A DNA stretch of 64,000 nt from an uncultured Bacilli bacterium (GTDB lineage: Bacteria > Bacillota_I > Bacilli_A > RF39 > UBA660), in assembly GCA_934155645.1 (NCBI GenBank), contig CAKPHC010000001.1:31015-95014 (forward strand), read 5' to 3'. Below the pieces are notes generated by a model that did not search any database, was not told the DNA's origin, and worked only from the letters and a program-made list of their open reading frames with translations. Position numbers and translations under genes: made by a program. Shown piece after piece: positions 30,698 to 62,567 of this stretch (position 1 is the first letter of the stretch; each line of letters begins with the position of its first letter).

Positions 30698-30814
30698 AGT
30701 GAACCCCTTCTATTATGATATTACTATTTATAGTATACTATAAAGGTAAAAAAAAAACAACGTTTTATTGAGTTAAGTCTTAAGGTGTGTTATTATAAAA
30801 CAAGAGGTGTTTAT

Positions 30815-35661: not shown

Positions 35662-37284
35662 TTAATTGGCTTCTATATATTTCTTTCCTAGTTTTTTAAC
35701 ATAAACTTTAATTTTTTCTTCACTCATCTTTTTCCAATTATTTTCATTATAATACCAATTGAAATCGGCACTATTACTTAAATAACATCCTTCAAATAAA
35801 GTATTTCTAATATTGAATAATTGGTAAGGCAACCTAATAACCGCATAATAATCAGTAAAATCATATTGTTCTTTATTTTCTTTTGAGAAAATAGAGGCAG
35901 TGCTATAGTTTCGTGTATATATTCTAGTATGTTCTTCTAAAGTATTATAATTTTTTCTCCAAGATTCCCCTATTTTATAAATGTCTTCCAACTCATCACC
36001 ACTAGAATCACTTGAAGTAATAATCTCCCATCCAGTCATAGATAAATCTTCACTACTATTATGATGATTACTATAAGTAACTTTGGATACTACTCCATAA
36101 AATCCTAAAGCATAAGCTTTTTTTCTTACAGCTGGCCAAGAAGAATCTCCCATAGTCATACCATAACTCTCATCTTCTCTTAACATTAAGACTTTTAAGC
36201 CATGCTCTTCATATCTCTTTTTTTCATATAAAGACTGTTCCAAATTAAGTTTTCGCTCATCAATAGTAGAATTAAGAGCACCAGAGTCACTACCACCATG
36301 TCCTGGGTCTATTAAAATATCATACTTATACTCAAAGTCTTCTACCTTTATCTTTACATTATCATTATCATAATTAAAACTAATTAACTTATCCCCTATT
36401 TTAGCTCTTACTATACGATATTGCATTTCTAATCTATTAACTGCTTTTTCATCTATTTTAGAATTAATCCACATATAATAAGTACCGTTCTTTAAATTAG
36501 ACAAATCAATACTTCCATCATAGTAATAATCATCAATTTTATTCATTTCATAACTAATACATTTCTTTTTATTATCTTCACATAGTTTCATCTTAAATGT
36601 ACCATTATTATCCTTAACATATCCCGTAATAGAAATACCATTATCTATAAACTTCATAGAAGTAATTAAATTAGATTCCAATATCCCTGTTATATCATTT
36701 ACAATATCATCTACTGGCAAAACATTTACAATTCTTGTTTTCTTAGACGTATTACCACTAGTATCTGTTACTTGATATATTACTTCATATCTTCCAACTA
36801 AATTAGTATTAACATAATTCTCTATTTTTAATTTATTACTAGCTTTTTCATCATAATTATCAACAACATTACATCCTAAATCATTATAAGTACTTCCCAC
36901 AGTAACAGATACTTCTTCTTCACCATTTAAAGTAATTACAGGAGCTTGGATATCTTTAACTTCTACTTCTCTTTTTAAAGTCATTTCTTTATCTTTATAC
37001 TTAATCTTATAAGTTACTTCATAAGTACCTATTTTATTTATATCTACTAAAGATGTATCAATAACTACATCATTAGATAAATCCTTGTCATTAATATATG
37101 CCTTAACACCTAGGTCATTATAACTTTCATATATATTTAAAGTAACAGAAGAATCACCAATTAGTTTAAATGTAAAAATCATACTCTTTAAAAAGAAGTA
37201 TAATAAACCACTAGCCACTATCAACATAGTACCTAAAATTGCAATAAATATTAATATATTCTTCTTATTAAAAAAATCCTTCAT
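35662..37284 (-). CDS. Membrane-anchored N-acetylmuramoyl-L-alanine amidase (Amidase_3) with N-terminal Ig-like repeats
   Basis: DILIDPGHGGSDSGA motif. Two Ig-like repeats (YEVTYK...TDTSGN). Confidence 0.65.
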   Translation of the reverse strand: MKDFFNKKNILIFIAILGTMLIVASGLLYFFLKSMIFTFKLIGDSSVTLNIYESYNDLGVKAYINDKDLSNDVVIDTSLVDINKIGTYEVTYKIKYKDKEMTLKREVEVKDIQAPVITLNGEEEVSVTVGSTYNDLGCNVVDNYDEKASNKLKIENYVNTNLVGRYEVIYQVTDTSGNTSKKTRIVNVLPVDDIVNDITGILESNLITSMKFIDNGISITGYVKDNNGTFKMKLCEDNKKKCISYEMNKIDDYYYDGSIDLSNLKNGTYYMWINSKIDEKAVNRLEMQYRIVRAKIGDKLISFNYDNDNVKIKVEDFEYKYDILIDPGHGGSDSGALNSTIDERKLNLEQSLYEKKRYEEHGLKVLMLREDESYGMTMGDSSWPAVRKKAYALGFYGVVSKVTYSNHHNSSEDLSMTGWEIITSSDSSGDELEDIYKIGESWRKNYNTLEEHTRIYTRNYSTASIFSKENKEQYDFTDYYAVIRLPYQLFNIRNTLFEGCYLSNSADFNWYYNENNWKKMSEEKIKVYVKKLGKKYIEAN

Positions 37285-37722: not shown

Positions 37723-39372
37723 TTAGTTAACTTTCATAACATACGGATTATTAAGAGTTCCGTTTCCTCCATCAATGATTTCTGCAGTAGATTTCAGATT
37801 GATGACCGGGCGCACGCCATCGTCATCGACGACGCCGACGATGTCAAGTCTATCAGCAGGACCGACATTCCACACGCTAGCGTTAGAGCCAGAGCGTAAG
37901 GGCGACATTGTCCAATAATGAGAATCAGTATACAAGTAATATTCAGTATTTTCGTTATAAGCTACCCCACCTGCATATGCTACTTCATCTGCTGTTATTA
38001 AGCCAATTGGATAAGTTAGTGCTTTATTTCCTTTTGTTGAAGTTGCTGTTGTATATAAATCATTACTTTGTGGACATTTAAATTGTGGTGTTTTATTTAA
38101 ATCAAGTCTATAATAAGCACCGTAAATAGTAATACCATCACCAATGTCAAAACCACTTCTATCTCCACAAAATCCTATATCTACTAAATATGATGAATAA
38201 GTACTTAAATTTGCACTATACCATGTATCTATTGTTGTTTTTATTGCACTTGAATTGGTATTTTTATGAGTTTCAGCATATGTCGATGCACCTGTTGTTC
38301 CATACATATACCCTACATATGTAGCATCATTAGAGTTAGTATTAAACGCACTATTACCTATTGAATCTTGTTTGATTAATCTTATACTTCCATCTTCATT
38401 TATTCTTACTATTCGCCACAAAATTTCTTTTTTTCCCCATGTAGCGTATTCATTTGTATATGTTGTGCCTTCAAATTGAGAACACTTTTCACCATTTACA
38501 TCTCCTGAAATAATTGCACCTACACCATTTCTAGCAAGACAAACCTTTGATTCCTTACATTGACTCTCATTTGTCGTTGGATATTCACCTGCACCATTAA
38601 CATAGACAACCTCATTTCCATTATAAGTACATACATTTACTTTTCCAAATGATACATAGTTATTCTCCACTGCTCCTCTAAAGTAATATGTTGTTTTATT
38701 ATCTTCGGTATTTGTACTTGTATAATATAGTCCTTTTCCATTTGTATCACTACTTATTTGTGAAAAATCTATATTTGTATCAGGCTGTGCTGTATTATCT
38801 TTTAATATTGCTGCTGATAATCTTGTTGTTTTTATTATAGGGTTTTCTGGTGTCACGGTTTCGCTCATATCTTGTACATAATTAATATCAATGGTTAAAG
38901 TATTATCTGTTAAGGCTGGTTGAGTTGTTACATTAGAATCATAACTAATTGTTACGTTAAATGTAGAGGTTTGAGATTTTGCTAATTTGTCTCCTTTTTT
39001 TATTCCGGTTATTTCAAATTTAATAGCATCACTTCCAGTTTCACTTGCTGTTATATCATTTATTATTGCATCTAATGTTCCTTGATTTGCTACTGTTATT
39101 TTGTAGATTATCTTGTCACCTGGACTTTTTAAATCTACATTAAATGTTGCATTTGTTCCTTCTGCTGTTGGTACTTTGGTAATAGTTACTCCACTTGTTT
39201 TAGATACTTCTTCTATTTTAGTAAATAGTACTTTCCAAGTTGATGTAATATTTGCTGTACCATTAATAGTTAAGTTTGTTGCAAACGCTGCATACCCTAT
39301 TGCCATTACACATATTAAACAGCACATCGTTATCATAATTATTTTCTTACTCTTCATATACTTCTCTTCCAT
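37723..39372 (-). CDS. Surface protein with a TasA/camelysin (SipW-cognate) like N-terminal domain and a DUF6273-like C-terminus
   Basis: Leader KKIIMITMCCLICVMAIGYAAFATNLTINGTA. The ATFNVDLKSPGDKIIYKITVANQGTLDA motif resembles TasA/CalY. C-terminal YWTMSP...VWNV...GVRPVINL. RBS GGAGAGAG. Confidence 0.55.
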   Translation of the reverse strand: MEEKYMKSKKIIMITMCCLICVMAIGYAAFATNLTINGTANITSTWKVLFTKIEEVSKTSGVTITKVPTAEGTNATFNVDLKSPGDKIIYKITVANQGTLDAIINDITASETGSDAIKFEITGIKKGDKLAKSQTSTFNVTISYDSNVTTQPALTDNTLTIDINYVQDMSETVTPENPIIKTTRLSAAILKDNTAQPDTNIDFSQISSDTNGKGLYYTSTNTEDNKTTYYFRGAVENNYVSFGKVNVCTYNGNEVVYVNGAGEYPTTNESQCKESKVCLARNGVGAIISGDVNGEKCSQFEGTTYTNEYATWGKKEILWRIVRINEDGSIRLIKQDSIGNSAFNTNSNDATYVGYMYGTTGASTYAETHKNTNSSAIKTTIDTWYSANLSTYSSYLVDIGFCGDRSGFDIGDGITIYGAYYRLDLNKTPQFKCPQSNDLYTTATSTKGNKALTYPIGLITADEVAYAGGVAYNENTEYYLYTDSHYWTMSPLRSGSNASVWNVGPADRLDIVGVVDDDGVRPVINLKSTAEIIDGGNGTLNNPYVMKVN

Positions 39373-39404: not shown

Positions 39405-39436
39405 ATTATACCCCCCCCCCCCTAGGAGTTTTGCAA
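39405..39436 (-). promoter_or_regulatory. Promoter with a G12 homopolymer in the -35/-10 spacer (TTGCAA, 20 nt, TATAAT), a candidate phase-variation switch
   Basis: The plus strand has 12 consecutive C at 39411-39422. On the minus strand this reads TTGCAAAACTCCTAG(G12)TATAAT, about 30 nt upstream of the RBS and ATG. Confidence 0.6.
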
Positions 39437-55025: not shown

Positions 55026-56651
55026 TTATTTATTACGAACTTTCTTTATAATTTGTACTAAATCTAATATAAACAATAAAACTAACAAAGATGTCATAAT
55101 GTATGGAATGTAATTCGTACCAGTGTTACTAGTAGTAGAAGTAGTATCATTATTACTTACTTTAATTCTTATTTGATATACACTGCTATTACCATCTTCA
55201 TCACTTACTATAATTTTGATAATACTTCCATCTTTTAAATTTTCATTACCAACAATCTCTGTAGTATAACCATTATCATTAAAAGCAATAATATTTAATG
55301 ACTTTTCTTTACCTATCGTTAAAGTATACTCAAATATTTCTTTATTAAATTTAATGTCATATCCATCAATTTTTAAATTATCTAGATATAATTTTTCTAA
55401 AACTTTATCCTCTTTTACGACAATTATTTTATAAATTTTCTCACTATTATCTTCTGCTTTTACTGTTATCGTTACAATATTCTTACCTATCTTAAAATTT
55501 TCATTACCAGTTATTTCTACTTTAGAAGTATCAAGTTCAGGTATAGCTTCAATATCAAGACTATCAACATCTTTTCCAACTTTATACTCATAATCAACTA
55601 CATCTTTTTCAAAGTCTATATCTTTTCCATCAATTGTTAAAGATTTCAAATATGCATTAGCATTTCTATTATCAGGTCTGTTTATAGTAATTAAATAACT
55701 CTTACTTCCACCATCTTCACTAGTAACAGTAATAGTAAATTCATTTTTGCCATACTCCAAAGTCTTTTCTCCAGTACCAGTTACAGTTACTTTCGAATTA
55801 CTAGGAGTAGCTTTAATAATTACTTTATCACTATCAACAACAGCAGTATAGTTAGTTACATTACTAGAAAACTTAGGAGATAAATTACCTTTATCAATAG
55901 TAAGATTACTTAAAGATACATCAGTACTTTTCTCTTTATTAACAGTAATTCTATAAGTTTTAGTACTTCCAGATTCAGAAGTGACTACTATTTTAAATGT
56001 TTCACTATCCTTAGTTAAAGTTTTAAGCCCAGCGCCAGTTACTGTAGCTTTAGAAGCTGCAACTGCTGAAATATTAATTTTATCAGATTTAGTATTAACT
56101 ACATAAATAGTTATATTACTCCTAAATGCAGGACTTAAACTACAATTATTACAATCACTAACACTTAAAGAACTTAAAGTATTATCATCGGAATTAAAAC
56201 TAACATTAATAGATTTATTTCCTAAAGAAACACTATTATAATTATCATCACCCATAACTATATTATTAAAACTAATTGTACTGCTACCAACAGCACCACT
56301 ACTAGCTTTAACCCTAAAAGTAGCTATTGTAAAACTACTAACTTTGTCTTTGCTTTGACGTATCAAGTTAATATCACTAACACTAAAATTAGAATCAAAA
56401 GATGTCCAATTACTTTTATCATATGATGAACTAACTATTGATAAATAATTACCAACTTTAGCCGTTCCTGCTATATCAGTCGGTACAAAATCTAAATTAC
56501 TAACTGATAAACTACAACTTGTTTCTTCATTACTATTAAGTTTTGTTTTATCACAACTAATATTAATATCATTACTTGCTAAGACACAGTCTGGTATCAA
56601 AAATAAAAATAATACTAATATAATAATTCCTACTTTATTTCTAAAACTCAT
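55026..56651 (-). CDS. Cell-surface protein with tandem cadherin-like beta-sandwich repeats and a C-terminal transmembrane anchor
   Basis: At least four repeats of LSxLxV...LSPxFxxxxxxYTAVV...TVTSEDGxSKxYxITV. Confidence 0.6.
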   Translation of the reverse strand: MSFRNKVGIIILVLFLFLIPDCVLASNDINISCDKTKLNSNEETSCSLSVSNLDFVPTDIAGTAKVGNYLSIVSSSYDKSNWTSFDSNFSVSDINLIRQSKDKVSSFTIATFRVKASSGAVGSSTISFNNIVMGDDNYNSVSLGNKSINVSFNSDDNTLSSLSVSDCNNCSLSPAFRSNITIYVVNTKSDKINISAVAASKATVTGAGLKTLTKDSETFKIVVTSESGSTKTYRITVNKEKSTDVSLSNLTIDKGNLSPKFSSNVTNYTAVVDSDKVIIKATPSNSKVTVTGTGEKTLEYGKNEFTITVTSEDGGSKSYLITINRPDNRNANAYLKSLTIDGKDIDFEKDVVDYEYKVGKDVDSLDIEAIPELDTSKVEITGNENFKIGKNIVTITVKAEDNSEKIYKIIVVKEDKVLEKLYLDNLKIDGYDIKFNKEIFEYTLTIGKEKSLNIIAFNDNGYTTEIVGNENLKDGSIIKIIVSDEDGNSSVYQIRIKVSNNDTTSTTSNTGTNYIPYIMTSLLVLLFILDLVQIIKKVRNK

Positions 56652-56821: not shown

Positions 56822-57232
56822 ATGGGTGAAAATTGCTGCTGCTTTACTAAAACATTAAAAATAATTGACCTACTACAACGTAGTGCAGAAAAAGAAGAAT
56901 GCTTTGATAATACTTGTAGTAGACCATTTTTAGGAGTAGAAATACCATCATTATGTCTAAACACAAGACCTATAACCTTTTATGGGTGCGATAATAACTT
57001 AATACAATTAAACTATTCTACTACTATTAATGGTGAAACAAGTACAGGTACAAGTGGCATATTTAGAATTGAAAAAGTAGATGATGGTTGTGTTGTAGTA
57101 TCTATTCTTATAGCTAATCCAGATACAGAAGATACTACTAGACCATATATAACTACTAGGAATACAGCAACTATTAATTTAGGTTGTGTATGCGCTATAA
57201 AATGTTTAGGCGATACTATCGTTGATTTATAG
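56822..57232 (+). CDS. CotY/CotZ-family cysteine-rich spore coat/exosporium protein (paralog A)
   Basis: GIFRIEKVDDGCVVVSILIA and INLGCVCAIKCLGD resemble B. subtilis CotZ. Confidence 0.6.
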   Translation: MGENCCCFTKTLKIIDLLQRSAEKEECFDNTCSRPFLGVEIPSLCLNTRPITFYGCDNNLIQLNYSTTINGETSTGTSGIFRIEKVDDGCVVVSILIANPDTEDTTRPYITTRNTATINLGCVCAIKCLGDTIVDL

Positions 57233-57247
57233 AAAGGGGGATAAAAT

Positions 57248-57664
57248 ATGTGTGGAAATAATAATGAATGTTCTTGTTCTTTTATAAAAACTTTAGAATT
57301 AATCCTTACCCTTCAACAAAAAGGTGAAGTATGTGATGTTAATAACGGTTGTAGTAAACCTTTTTTAGGACCAATATTAAATAGTGTATGTCTAAATACA
57401 AGACCAATAACACTATATAGTTGTTGTACACATGCATTATGGTCTATGCCATATACTTTAAATGGAACTCAAGGAAATAGTACAGTATTTAGAATAGAAA
57501 ACTTAGATGACAATTGTGCAACATTTAGAGTTCTAGCACCTAATCCAAATGTTGATGAACAAGAAACATTCCCTTATGTAGCAACTAATGATTACTTCAC
57601 TATTAATTTAAAATGTGTTGGTGCAATTAAATGCTTAGGTGACACATACATAAGTGGAGTATAA
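57248..57664 (+). CDS. CotY/CotZ-family cysteine-rich spore coat/exosporium protein (paralog B)
   Basis: TVFRIENLDDNCATFRVLAP and INLKCVGAIKCLGD. Confidence 0.6.
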   Translation: MCGNNNECSCSFIKTLELILTLQQKGEVCDVNNGCSKPFLGPILNSVCLNTRPITLYSCCTHALWSMPYTLNGTQGNSTVFRIENLDDNCATFRVLAPNPNVDEQETFPYVATNDYFTINLKCVGAIKCLGDTYISGV

Positions 57665-58126: not shown

Positions 58127-59254
58127 ATGCATAGAAAATATAAATTAGATAAAATTTTAATCTTATGTGTTTCAATATTTTTTATAATTAGTATATTATC
58201 TATATATTCAGCATCTATGTATTTATCCCCTACTTTAGGAAATTTGGCTTTAAAACAGGGATTATGGTATTTAATAGGAGCAATTATAATATTTCTGGTT
58301 ATAAAATTTAAGAATAATCTTTTCTATAAATATAGTTGGTATATATATTTAATTAATGTCATCTTACTAGTAGGACTTCTCTTTCTAGCACCTGATATTA
58401 ATGGAAGTAAATGTTGGTATATCATTAAAGGTATAGGAAGTATTCAACCAAGTGAATTTATGAAGATATCTCTTATTTTAATTCTTGCAAAAGTAATAGA
58501 TAATTTTAAAAAGAAAAAAAGAAAAGCAACCTTAAAAGATGAATTTGTTTTGTTGATTAAAGTATTTTGTATCGTATTAATTCCAAGCATTTTAACTTTT
58601 TTAGAACCAGATACTGGTGCGGTAATTATATACTTAATTATTACTTTAACTATGTTATTTATAAGTGGTATAAGTATTATTTGGTATATAATGTTAGGAA
58701 TAATAGTAGCAATCACTGGAAGCATTTTTCTTTATTTGTATTTTGTTAAACAAGATACATTTATAAGTATCTTCGGTAGTAACTTTTTCTATCGTATGGA
58801 CCGAATCATCAATTGGAAAAGCGGTAGTGGAATGCAGTTAGAAAACTCTTTAGCCGCAATCGGATCAAGTTATATAAAAGGACATGGTTTTAATAAAACT
58901 CCACTATATTTTCCGGAAGCAGGTACAGATTTTATATTCTCGGTATATGCCTCTAACTTCGGTTTAATTGGTTCTGTATTTTTAATAGGAATTATTATGT
59001 TATTTGATTTGCACATCATAAATATTGGTAAAGAAACAGTAAATAGAATTGATAAATATGTAGTATCAGGTATTATAGGTATATTCATATATCAACAAAT
59101 TCAAAATATTGGTATGACTATAGGCATGTTACCAATAACAGGTATTACTCTTCCATTTATAAGTTATGGAGGAAGTAGCTTAATATCATATATGATTATA
59201 ATAGGTCTATTGCTAAATATTTATAATAACAAAGAAAAAAAGATAAGATATTAA
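58127..59254 (+). CDS. FtsW/RodA/SpoVE-family peptidoglycan glycosyltransferase
   Basis: A polytopic protein with SEDS motifs (PDTGA, GMLPITGITLPFISYGGSS). Confidence 0.8.
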   Translation: MHRKYKLDKILILCVSIFFIISILSIYSASMYLSPTLGNLALKQGLWYLIGAIIIFLVIKFKNNLFYKYSWYIYLINVILLVGLLFLAPDINGSKCWYIIKGIGSIQPSEFMKISLILILAKVIDNFKKKKRKATLKDEFVLLIKVFCIVLIPSILTFLEPDTGAVIIYLIITLTMLFISGISIIWYIMLGIIVAITGSIFLYLYFVKQDTFISIFGSNFFYRMDRIINWKSGSGMQLENSLAAIGSSYIKGHGFNKTPLYFPEAGTDFIFSVYASNFGLIGSVFLIGIIMLFDLHIINIGKETVNRIDKYVVSGIIGIFIYQQIQNIGMTIGMLPITGITLPFISYGGSSLISYMIIIGLLLNIYNNKEKKIRY

Positions 59255-59298
59255 AAATTATAAAAAGAATCAAACATAATGTTTGATTCTTTTGCGTT

Positions 59299-60399
59299 TT
59301 ACTTAATATCACTATAATTCATTTCAATTACTGGTCTAACTCCCACTGATGGAGTTCTAGCTCCTGCAAGGTCAAGATAACCATCACTTCTGATATTCAA
59401 ATTTGTTGTACCAGATGTAAATTCAATCCAATATGATGTTGAATATACCCAGCTAGGTGCGTTTAGGCAATAATTATTCGAAGCGTCATTAACACATCCA
59501 AGGTTCTCCAATTCTGATCCGGTTATATATCTTACATTAGTTACGTTTGCACCCAGTCTTCGCAAATATACTCTATACGTATTTAAGTGACTTTGAACAT
59601 CACCATAACCTACTCCACCATATGCAGTTACACCTTCTTTGTATCCTACTACATTTGAGTCTTGCTTACCAGTTCCTTTATATGTAGTATTAACATCTCC
59701 AGTATTTACATCCAAATTATATTTAGCAAGCGCAGCAAAAGAAGTAGTACCATTTACAGAAATTATATAGAAAGCTTCATCGCCTATTTTAAATTCTGAA
59801 CCCACCGTATATTTATCACCAACAAATTGCATAGTTATATCATTACTTGGGTTTATTGTTATATCCTCATCAGTAATAGTTTGTCCTACATCTTGAACAA
59901 AGTTTATAGACAATGTTAATTTATTATCTACATAAACTGGTTGACTAGTTATGCTAGAATCATAGTCAATTGTCACTGCAAAAAAAGTTTCATTATTACT
60001 TTTTAACTTAGTACCTTTTTTAATATTTGCTACACTAAATTTAATAGCATCACTTCCAGTTTCACCTGCAGTAATGTCATTTACTATTGCATCCAGTGTG
60101 CCTTTATTCTTTATATAAATAAAATAAATTATCTCATCACCAGGACTTTCTAAGTCAACATTAAATGTAACTGTTGTACCACTCGCTGTTGGTGCTGAAA
60201 TTTCAGTAACATTACCTGTACTGCTAAACTTTTGAATTTTAGTAAATTCTATATCCCAAGTTGACTCAATACTTGCTGTACCATTAACTGTTAATTGTGT
60301 TGCAAAAGCTGCATACGCTACTGCCATCACACATATTAAACAACACATAGTTGTTATAATTATTTTCTTTGTCTTCATATATTTTTCTTTCATCCTCAT
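59299..60399 (-). CDS. Surface protein with a TasA/camelysin-like N-domain and a DUF6273-like C-terminus (paralog of 37723..39372)
   Basis: MRMKEKYMKTKKIIITTMCCLICVMAVAYAAFATQLTVNGTA. VTFNVDLESPGDEIIYFIYIKNKGTLDA. C-terminal GVRPVIEM. The start was moved downstream of the promoter. RBS GGAGAG. Confidence 0.55.
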   Translation of the reverse strand: MRMKEKYMKTKKIIITTMCCLICVMAVAYAAFATQLTVNGTASIESTWDIEFTKIQKFSSTGNVTEISAPTASGTTVTFNVDLESPGDEIIYFIYIKNKGTLDAIVNDITAGETGSDAIKFSVANIKKGTKLKSNNETFFAVTIDYDSSITSQPVYVDNKLTLSINFVQDVGQTITDEDITINPSNDITMQFVGDKYTVGSEFKIGDEAFYIISVNGTTSFAALAKYNLDVNTGDVNTTYKGTGKQDSNVVGYKEGVTAYGGVGYGDVQSHLNTYRVYLRRLGANVTNVRYITGSELENLGCVNDASNNYCLNAPSWVYSTSYWIEFTSGTTNLNIRSDGYLDLAGARTPSVGVRPVIEMNYSDIK

Positions 60400-60427
60400 C
60401 TCTCCAAACTTTATTTTATCTATAATC

Positions 60428-60458
60428 ATTATACCCCCCCCCCCTAGGGTTTTTGCAA
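60428..60458 (-). promoter_or_regulatory. Promoter with a G11 homopolymer in the -35/-10 spacer (TTGCAA, 19 nt, TATAAT)
   Basis: Eleven C lie at 60434-60444 on the plus strand. The whole region of about 70 nt is conserved with 39405-39470. Confidence 0.6.
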
Positions 60459-60634
60459 GAAGGAAATGTTATCATTTTTTGATTTTTTTATAAAAATAGA
60501 CAATATTTACCACTTCTATACACTAGTATCTACTATCTACTAAATTATAACCCTAAATTGGGTAGAATTTTGTTGGTAAATTTTACCAATTAAAGCAATA
60601 AAAAAAGACAACCTTTTTAATTTGTTGCCTTTCA

Positions 60635-61790: not shown

Positions 61791-62567
61791 CTATTTTAAA
61801 GTAGACCTTAAACTCTCAATAGCATTTTTCTCTATTCTAGAAATTTGAGCTTGGCTTATACCTAATTCACTTGCTATTTCCATTTGTGTTTTACCCATTA
61901 CAAATCTTTGGTCTAAGATAAATTTTTCCCTTTCTGCTAAGTTATCAATCGCATCACTAACAGATAACTTTACATCCAAATCATTATTTTTAATTGTCTT
62001 ATCTTCTATTTGGTCACACAAATAAATTGTATCTCCCCCATCAGAATATATAGGTTCAAAAATGCTTATAGGGTCGCGCATAGAATCTAAAGCATTAATA
62101 ACATCATAATTAGAAACGCCAAGTATTTTAGCAATTTCATCAGTAGTAGGTTCAATACCTTTCTCTAGTATAAATTCATCTTTTACTTTTAAAGTTTTAT
62201 ATGCCAAATCTTTTAAAGACCTGCTAACTCTTATACTGTTATTATCTCTCAAATATCTTCTTACTTCACCTTGAATCATAGGAACACAATAAGTAGAAAA
62301 CTTAACTCCATAAGATAAATCAAAATTATCTATGGCTTTTAAAAGTCCAATACATCCTATTTGGAATAAATCATCCATATTTTCTTCTCTTTTAGAGAAT
62401 TTCTTTAGAATTGATAATACTAGTTTTAAGTTACCATTTACTAGTTCATCTCTAACAGATTCATCTCCAGATTTTAATCTTTGGAATAATTCTTCCATTT
62501 CTTCACTACTTAATACTTTAATATTTGCTGTATTCACGCCACTGATTTCAACTTTGTGACGTGCCAT
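61791..62567 (-). CDS. sigG: Sporulation sigma factor SigG
   Basis: KVEISGVNTANIKVLSSEEMEELF...DLFQIGCIGLLKAIDNFDL...GKTQMEIASELGISQAQISRIEK is near-colinear with B. subtilis SigG. Confidence 0.85.
   Translation of the reverse strand: MARHKVEISGVNTANIKVLSSEEMEELFQRLKSGDESVRDELVNGNLKLVLSILKKFSKREENMDDLFQIGCIGLLKAIDNFDLSYGVKFSTYCVPMIQGEVRRYLRDNNSIRVSRSLKDLAYKTLKVKDEFILEKGIEPTTDEIAKILGVSNYDVINALDSMRDPISIFEPIYSDGGDTIYLCDQIEDKTIKNNDLDVKLSVSDAIDNLAEREKFILDQRFVMGKTQMEIASELGISQAQISRIEKNAIESLRSTLK

Follow-up and report, generated by a model that had tools for sequence, protein, structure and literature searches.

The DNA analysed here, hereafter the window, is a stretch of 64,000 nt from an uncultured Bacilli bacterium. 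It contains two paralogous genes on the minus strand, locus B and locus A, each preceded by a promoter with a long G homopolymer between its -35 and -10 hexamers. The two promoters lie 21 kb apart. The features of both loci are as follows.

60453..60458, minus strand: -35 hexamer of locus B, TTGCAA, read directly in the sequence
60445..60452, minus strand: non-repeat part of the locus B spacer, AAACCCTA, 8 nt, by direct reading
60434..60444, minus strand: G11 homopolymer of locus B, the proposed slippage-prone switch, by direct reading, run count and shuffles
60428..60433, minus strand: -10 hexamer of locus B, TATAAT, by direct reading
60400..60405, minus strand: ribosome-binding site (RBS) of locus B, GGAGAG, 6 nt 5' of ATG 60393
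59299..60393, minus strand: coding sequence of locus B, 364 aa from ATG 60393, with an N-terminus that aligns with MEEKYMK of the family
59263..59293, minus strand: terminator hairpin after locus B, common to the convergent FtsW/SpoVE-like gene
60490..60594, minus strand: optional module of ~105 nt, located 5' of the -35 hexamer and 3' of the terminator of the upstream glycosyltransferase gene
39405..39436, minus strand: paralogous promoter of locus A, by direct reading and alignment with locus B
37723..39372, minus strand: coding sequence of locus A, 549 aa, with the same N-terminal module and a longer C-terminal region

Promoter architecture and surroundings

On the minus strand, from 60458 to 60428, the locus B promoter reads TTGCAA-AAACCCTA-GGGGGGGGGGG-TATAAT. 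The -35 hexamer is near-consensus, the -10 hexamer is perfect, and the tract is situated exactly between them. The spacer is 19 nt long, and 11 of these nucleotides are G. The hexamers, the G11 tract and the 19-nt spacer had been described in the first-pass annotation of this DNA, and direct reading reproduced all of them. In locus A, TTGCAA (39436-39431) is followed by AACTCCTA (39430-39423), G12 (39422-39411) and TATAAT (39410-39405), which gives a spacer of 20 nt. By established consensus sequences, the hexamers of both loci are of the sigma-A type and do not follow a sporulation-sigma consensus. A sporulation-sigma promoter, considered on account of the SigG-, SpoVE- and CotZ-like neighbours, was thus rejected.

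The two promoter tracts are the only G/C runs of 6 nt or longer in the 64-kb window, the GC content of which is 27.5%. The string CCTA-G11-TATAAT was found in none of 100 dinucleotide-preserving shuffles. Simple-sequence repeat (SSR) phase variation in a promoter spacer is associated with repeat lengths of about 8 or more, and both G11 and G12 are in this range. The repeat is between the -35 and -10 hexamers of the promoter of the gene, as judged from sequence only.

On the plus strand of the window, C accounts for 16.5% and G for 10.9%, a strong asymmetry, and the minus strand carries almost every long ORF. The whole window is probably on one replichore, with its genes co-oriented with replication, and the coding strand is the one that bears both G tracts. 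Among A/T homopolymers, only one in the window reaches 10 nt, namely the intergenic A10 at 30748-30757, ~30 nt upstream of an ORF that begins at 30785. Error rates at the read level could be calibrated on this A10.

A sigma-70 scan with spacers of 16-18 nt found no other promoter-like site on the gene strand of either intergenic region, from the upstream terminator to the start codon. The poly-G promoters themselves were not called, because their spacers are 19 and 20 nt; this fits both window copies being outside the optimal spacing. Many family loci have the terminator T-run of the preceding gene immediately next to the -35 hexamer (e.g., TTTTTTTA-TTGCCA), which leaves no room for another promoter. 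At locus B, the ~105-nt module is located there. It holds an imperfect inverted repeat (60495-60512 / 60574-60591) and a TATAAT. The module is missing in a 98-99% identical strain (L028), whose terminator T-run abuts the -35 hexamer. Similar modules (GGnAAAATTTACCAA...TTATAAT) precede the paralogs L086, L089/L007, L005, L006 and L011. A regulatory site, a weak second promoter and a small insertion are all conceivable for the module, and its TATAAT could in principle supply transcription that is independent of the tract.

No inverted repeats bracket either promoter; the sole pair is that of the module, which is wholly upstream of the -35 hexamer. An inverton was therefore rejected. The search against Rfam revealed no known RNA element in the 5'UTR, and only three tRNAs in the window. 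The promoter pattern had 0 matches in the IMG/VR viral contigs, and thus there is no sign of phage origin.

Locus B is ringed by sporulation-type genes (56822-57664, 61791-62567 and 58127-59254). Such neighbours include two tandem genes for CotZ-like cysteine-rich proteins, a SigG/SigF-like sigma factor and a protein of the FtsW/RodA/SpoVE family. Because SigG-like, FtsW/SpoVE-like and CotZ-like genes are present in the window, the host, an uncultured low-GC gut member of Bacilli, is probably a spore-former. Two more large predicted surface proteins are encoded near the family genes, at 55026-56651 and 35662-37284. One has cadherin-like beta-sandwich repeats and a C-terminal transmembrane (TM) segment, and the other has Ig-like surface domains and Amidase_3. 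There is no homopolymer tract upstream of either gene.

Coding sequences and the predicted product

The start in the ORF track, ATG 60429, sits inside the -10 box and therefore cannot be on the transcript. The first-pass annotation had discarded this start with good reason, and had placed the real one at MRMKEKYMK (60399). There are three in-frame ATGs after GGAGAG, at 60399, 60393 and 60378. ATG 60399 directly adjoins GGAGAG, and ATG 60393 is 6 nt past it. The sequence MKEKYMKTKK... from 60393 matches MEEKYMK(T/S)KK of locus A and most homologs, residue for residue. By its RBS spacing and the family alignment, ATG 60393 is the most likely start codon of locus B, and it lies two codons 3' of the one proposed before. 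This is a minor correction.

No family in Pfam or NCBIfam matched the locus B protein. The AlphaFold2 model, based on an alignment of 32 sequences, has a mean pLDDT of 81.6. Residues 2-31 (MKTKKIIITTMCCLICVMAVAYAAFA) form a hydrophobic, signal-like helix at the N-terminus that includes an AxA-like site. A flexible linker then leads to a beta-sandwich at residues ~48-167, which is followed by a mixed alpha/beta domain at the C-terminus. The structural matches comprised dozens of C-type lectin domains and PapD/MSP/ASH-like sandwiches. In our reading of the model, the lectin-like matches would correspond to the C-terminal domain and the sandwich matches to residues 48-167. Foldseek against PDB yielded only non-significant beta-sandwich matches, and a profile search of the PDB sequences yielded no match. 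The C-terminus of the locus A protein ends in a DUF6273-like GVRPVI segment; the match to DUF6273 has E=1.1e-4, just under the Pfam cut-off.

From these features, we predict that the locus B protein is exported and has a lectin-like binding domain. Its surface location and its binding role are suggested by these predictions. The N-terminus, MKTKKIIITTMCCLICVMAVAYAAFATQ, is without the [LVI][ASTVI][GAS]C lipobox, and neither LPXTG nor a C-terminal TM segment was detected in the protein. Since neither a cell-wall anchor nor a lipobox or C-terminal TM segment was found, the protein described as "surface" may be no more than secreted. The family N-terminus, composed of a K-rich segment, 20 hydrophobic residues and YAAFAT, is not a canonical class III signal.

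The promoter cassette in related sequences

The region containing the promoter and the 5'UTR (60485-60394 in locus B and 39462-39373 in locus A) is 82% identical between the two loci over 94 columns. The homology begins ~25 nt upstream of the -35 hexamer and is lost further upstream. The first 540 nt of the coding sequences are 69% identical, with 59% at third codon positions. The proteins show 63% identity over residues 1-180, and nothing significant beyond. The higher identity of the promoter and 5'UTR (82%) than of third codon positions (59%) indicates selection on the cassette. The earlier proposal that the promoter and the 5' part of the gene were duplicated together is confirmed by this conserved promoter/5'UTR cassette of ~90 nt and by the alignable start of the coding sequence.

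The search for homologs of the locus B protein identified 206 sequences at E ≤0.001. The best 120 of the 206 are all unnamed, and metagenome assemblies at ENA, NCBI or JGI are the source of nearly all of them. A scan with one genome per species found 19 loci, all in four metagenome-assembled genomes (MAGs) labelled "uncultured Bacilli bacterium". The four MAGs were derived from Hadza human gut, two Brazilian samples and rabbit. Upstream regions were drawn from this genome scan, from look-ups of exact proteins and from a metagenome scan with a degenerate promoter pattern (G7 to G16). The exact protein of locus B is on record in 14 contigs, P0002 in 10 and P0063 in 22, and one place was compared for each. 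The exact locus A protein sequence is not on record.

In total, ~30 homologous promoters with a tract in the same position were collected, from at least four MAG species and many metagenome contigs. They have a common layout: the -35 hexamer, 7-8 non-repeat bases ending in CCT(A), the G tract, TATAAT, a 5'UTR of TATAGATAAAATAA...GGAG, and ATG. Among these ~30 promoters, the -35 hexamer is TTGCAA, TTGCCA, TTGAAA or TTGCTA. The non-repeat part of the spacer is AATCCCTA, AACTCCTA, ATTCCCTA or the 7-nt AATTCCT. TATAAT is invariant in all tract-bearing promoters of the family, and the GGAG-type RBS motif is kept at the same place across the family.

The tract is G10 in 6, G11 in 14, G12 in 3 and G13 in 1 of the 24 tabulated promoters. 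The corresponding spacers are 17 nt (1), 18 nt (5), 19 nt (16) and 20 nt (2). The copies beyond this tabulation, five in number (listed as L001, L010 and L086-L090), do not fall outside these ranges. Within 202 kb of DNA of the lineage, 29 of the 30 G/C runs of 7 nt or longer lie in the spacer of a family promoter.

Several family members have no long tract. Their spacers are fixed, at 18 nt in L003 (2430-2500), 18 nt in L015, where only G5 is left, and 17 nt in L020. These three look like locked versions of the promoter. In the rabbit MAG, one copy (L021, 2440-2500) has only GGG and a spacer of 11 nt; either this promoter is dead or the homopolymer collapsed during assembly.

One Hadza MAG contains at least nine family copies over two contigs, eight of them with tracts. 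The description of a "small surface-protein family" in the first-pass annotation does not hold as to size, and "surface" is a prediction for a protein in which no anchor motif was found. The family shares the N-terminal ~180 aa. The C-terminal parts vary and include short or long DUF6273-like regions, Laminin_G_3 and LRR_5. In L089 (1-418), a family member is positioned directly 3' of a gene for prepilin peptidase (Peptidase_A24).

The tract length differs between sequences that are otherwise nearly or completely identical. L089 (ENA ERZ27287052) and L007 (Hadza MAG CAKOWQ01), which are independent assemblies, can be aligned over 2,683 nt with 0 mismatches and a single 1-nt gap. Their sole difference is G10 versus G11. 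For the orthologs of locus B, the tract is G11 in the window, in L084 (identical) and in L001 (98%), and G10 in L028 (flanks 98-99%). The locus 3' of a DUF421 gene has G11 in L080, G10 in L088 and G11 in L090, with flanks 91-92% identical. For genes of the locus A type, the tract lengths are G12 in the window, G10 in L086 (93% aa identity) and G11 in L087 (91%). Within one MAG, the near-identical paralogous cassettes L009 and L010 have G11 and G10, respectively, and the further paralogs L008, L012, L013 and L014 have G10, G13, G12 and G12. All of these lengths are consensus values from mostly short-read assemblies, for which one-base errors in G10-G12 are possible. It is on such consensus lengths that variation between otherwise identical genomes is observed. 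A long repeat, its position in the spacer and length differences between relatives, which are the features of SSR promoter-spacer phase variation that a sequence can display, are all present here.

The poly-G promoter is at the very end of four contigs, or no more than ~25 nt from it (L001:1-25, L016:1-47, L038:7955-7986 and L074:5903-5958). Such ends may reflect assembly breaks due to the repeated cassette or a poor or heterogeneous coverage of the homopolymer, and are no evidence of heterogeneity.

A separate repeated element, outside the window, was observed in ~45 JGI contigs (in L022-L083) from a few JGI projects. It has the structure TGTGTATCAATGGTTTTTACATCTC-TTGACA-AATTTCT-G7..G10-TATAAT-AAGGTTGTGGTATAATATAACAAAGTTTGAAAAGTAGAAAACTAT (e.g., L023:5222-5249 and L057:2407-2435). 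The poly-G length differs between copies, with spacers of 14-17 nt. Prepilin-type proteins (GFTLIELLVVVAIIAILAAMLLP) are among those encoded 3' of this element, which may constitute a second, independent family of poly-G promoter repeats in another organism.

Length-switch interpretation, alternatives and related systems

We consider it probable that the G11 tract is a slippage-driven length switch, which sets the strength of a sigma-A promoter for the gene of a secreted or surface binding protein. This interpretation is strongly backed by the comparison of relatives. The tract, which makes up most of the spacer of this sigma-70-type promoter, would be a hypermutable simple-sequence repeat. 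[quoted passage not shown] Promoter strength would change with it, either as ON/OFF or in a graded manner. Transcription would start ~7 nt past TATAAT. Switching would be reversible and of high frequency within a clone. Since each paralog has its own tract, a population would consist of cells with different combinations of expressed family members.

Because relatives without the tract sit at 17-18 nt, the ON state would correspond to these lengths, that is, G9-G10 at locus B, with G11 and G12 weak or OFF. In the window, where the spacers are 19 and 20 nt, both promoters are probably weak/low or OFF. With these presumed ON lengths, most family copies in any one assembly would be OFF, and it is usual in contingency families that most copies are OFF. 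The ON length is uncertain, because 19 nt is the commonest spacer and no G9 (17 nt) copy of the type with the 8-nt non-repeat part was seen. The promoter may tolerate a spacing of 18-19 nt.

It is unlikely that the G tract is instead a static, conserved element of the spacer, such as a regulator site or a structural element setting the basal strength, which changes on an evolutionary time scale only. The narrow range of lengths, G10-G13 with G11 commonest, is what such an element would produce, and CCCTA in the non-repeat part of the spacer is conserved too. However, two assemblies of 2.68 kb are identical apart from the tract, and the tract length also differs between near-identical paralogous cassettes in one MAG. 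G/C homopolymers of 10 nt or longer are slippage-prone in every bacterium examined, which is established knowledge (PMC5084427, PMC7864442). Relatives which lost the tract nonetheless hold their hexamers at 17-18 nt, indicating that the conserved function is the spacing and not the G sequence.

The tract could also vary and act by another route, through regulator binding or open-complex formation, or its effect could be masked by a promoter in the upstream module; we regard this as quite improbable. The opc and tprL tracts do act by non-spacing mechanisms (PMC7864442), a module with TATAAT recurs in several paralogs, and 19 nt as the commonest spacer is odd if most copies need expression. Against this, the upstream TATAAT lacks a usable -35 hexamer at a distance of 16-18 nt and went uncalled in the scan, and the module is missing in many family members as well as in the 98-99% identical strain. 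The position of the tract exactly between near-consensus hexamers, together with the tract-less relatives at 17-18 nt, also argues for an effect through spacing. The idea that the poly-G is an artefact of sequencing or assembly, for example from two-colour chemistry, is hardly credible. Homopolymer lengths are error-prone, and L001, L016, L038 and L074 end at or near the tract. Nevertheless, the tract is internal with conserved sequence on both sides, it occupies the same position in independent assemblies of different studies and hosts (Hadza, Brazilian, rabbit, and ENA and JGI human gut), and it is found upstream of one gene family only. The artefact explanation is effectively refuted.

The length switch proposed here resembles several known systems. 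In Mycoplasma hyorhinis, the vlp genes reportedly have a homopolymer (poly-A) in each promoter spacer and are switched ON and OFF in combinations, as is said to have been described by Citti and Wise in 1995. In GTDB, mycoplasmas are placed in the class Bacilli, to which the present MAGs also belong. As in vlp, which encodes variable surface proteins, the family here is a multigene family with a conserved cassette of promoter, 5'UTR and signal peptide, and with a homopolymer for each copy. The vlp tracts are poly-A, and the genes are clustered and encode repeat-bearing lipoproteins, whereas the present tracts are poly-G, and the genes are dispersed and show no lipobox. The variable parts here are folded C-terminal domains (C-type-lectin-like/DUF6273, Laminin_G_3 and LRR_5). 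Membership in the Vlp-type lipoproteins was rejected on these grounds, the absence of a lipobox and the folded C-terminal domain; the proposed working of the switch is like that of vlp.

The porA gene of Neisseria meningitidis and tp0126 of Treponema pallidum have poly-G between the -35 and -10 hexamers, with the best expression at 17 nt (PMC7864442). The porA tract is ~9-11 G, and expression is maximal at 17 nt and falls with a change in length (PMC7864442; PMC5084427 citing van der Ende 1995). Like porA, the loci here have a G homopolymer within a sigma-70-type promoter spacer, upstream of a gene for a surface protein, although the surface location is predicted here. In contrast to porA, which is a single-copy gene of a Gram-negative pathogen, they form a dispersed multigene family of uncultured low-GC, probably spore-forming gut Bacilli. 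The spacers observed here are 17-20 nt with 19 nt commonest.

In T. pallidum, tp0126 and tprE/G/J/L are several paralogous surface-protein genes, each with its own upstream poly-G (PMC7864442), and the family here is similar in this respect. Another similarity to the Treponema poly-G genes is that wrong ORF starts were corrected after the promoter was recognised (PMC7864442). The tpr tract, however, overlaps or adjoins the -10 hexamer or the transcription start site and leaves the spacing unchanged, and the organisms and proteins are unrelated to those here. Neisseria opc and Bordetella fim2/fim3 have poly-C promoter tracts, which exert a graded "volume control" of a surface protein (PMC7864442). 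The opc/fim tract overlaps the -35 hexamer or an activator site and acts with a regulator, whereas the tract here is cleanly between the hexamers.

The mechanism itself is well known. For gut Bacilli or Erysipelotrichia-like lineages, no description of a homopolymer promoter switch was found in the literature searched. The work on phase variation in the gut has mostly dealt with DNA inversions in Bacteroidales and, lately, with epigenetic switching (methylation). Whether this is the first simple-sequence "contingency" family in commensal spore-forming gut Firmicutes, with a portable cassette, independent switching and a combinatorial repertoire of adhesins or receptors, is a proposition that we believe and doubt in equal measure. 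The portable cassette would comprise the -35 hexamer, poly-G, the -10 hexamer, the 5'UTR, the signal peptide and the beta-sandwich of ~170 aa. It would have been recombined before different ligand-binding C-terminal domains (C-type-lectin-like/DUF6273, Laminin-G and LRR) at many chromosomal sites, with at least nine copies per genome. If this is true, the repertoire would be of the kind found in the mycoplasma Vlp or neisserial Opa systems, and would come on top of the inverton variation of gut Bacteroidales.

There are also practical consequences. Gene calls of the family made automatically start inside the -10 box, and assemblies may break at or near poly-G loci. If the switch is confirmed, the tract length would be a simple marker that can be read straight from metagenomic reads. 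Confirmation would also mean that uncultured low-GC spore-formers use pathogen-style contingency loci for secreted or surface binding proteins, possibly under pressure from host IgA, phages or changing glycan ligands.
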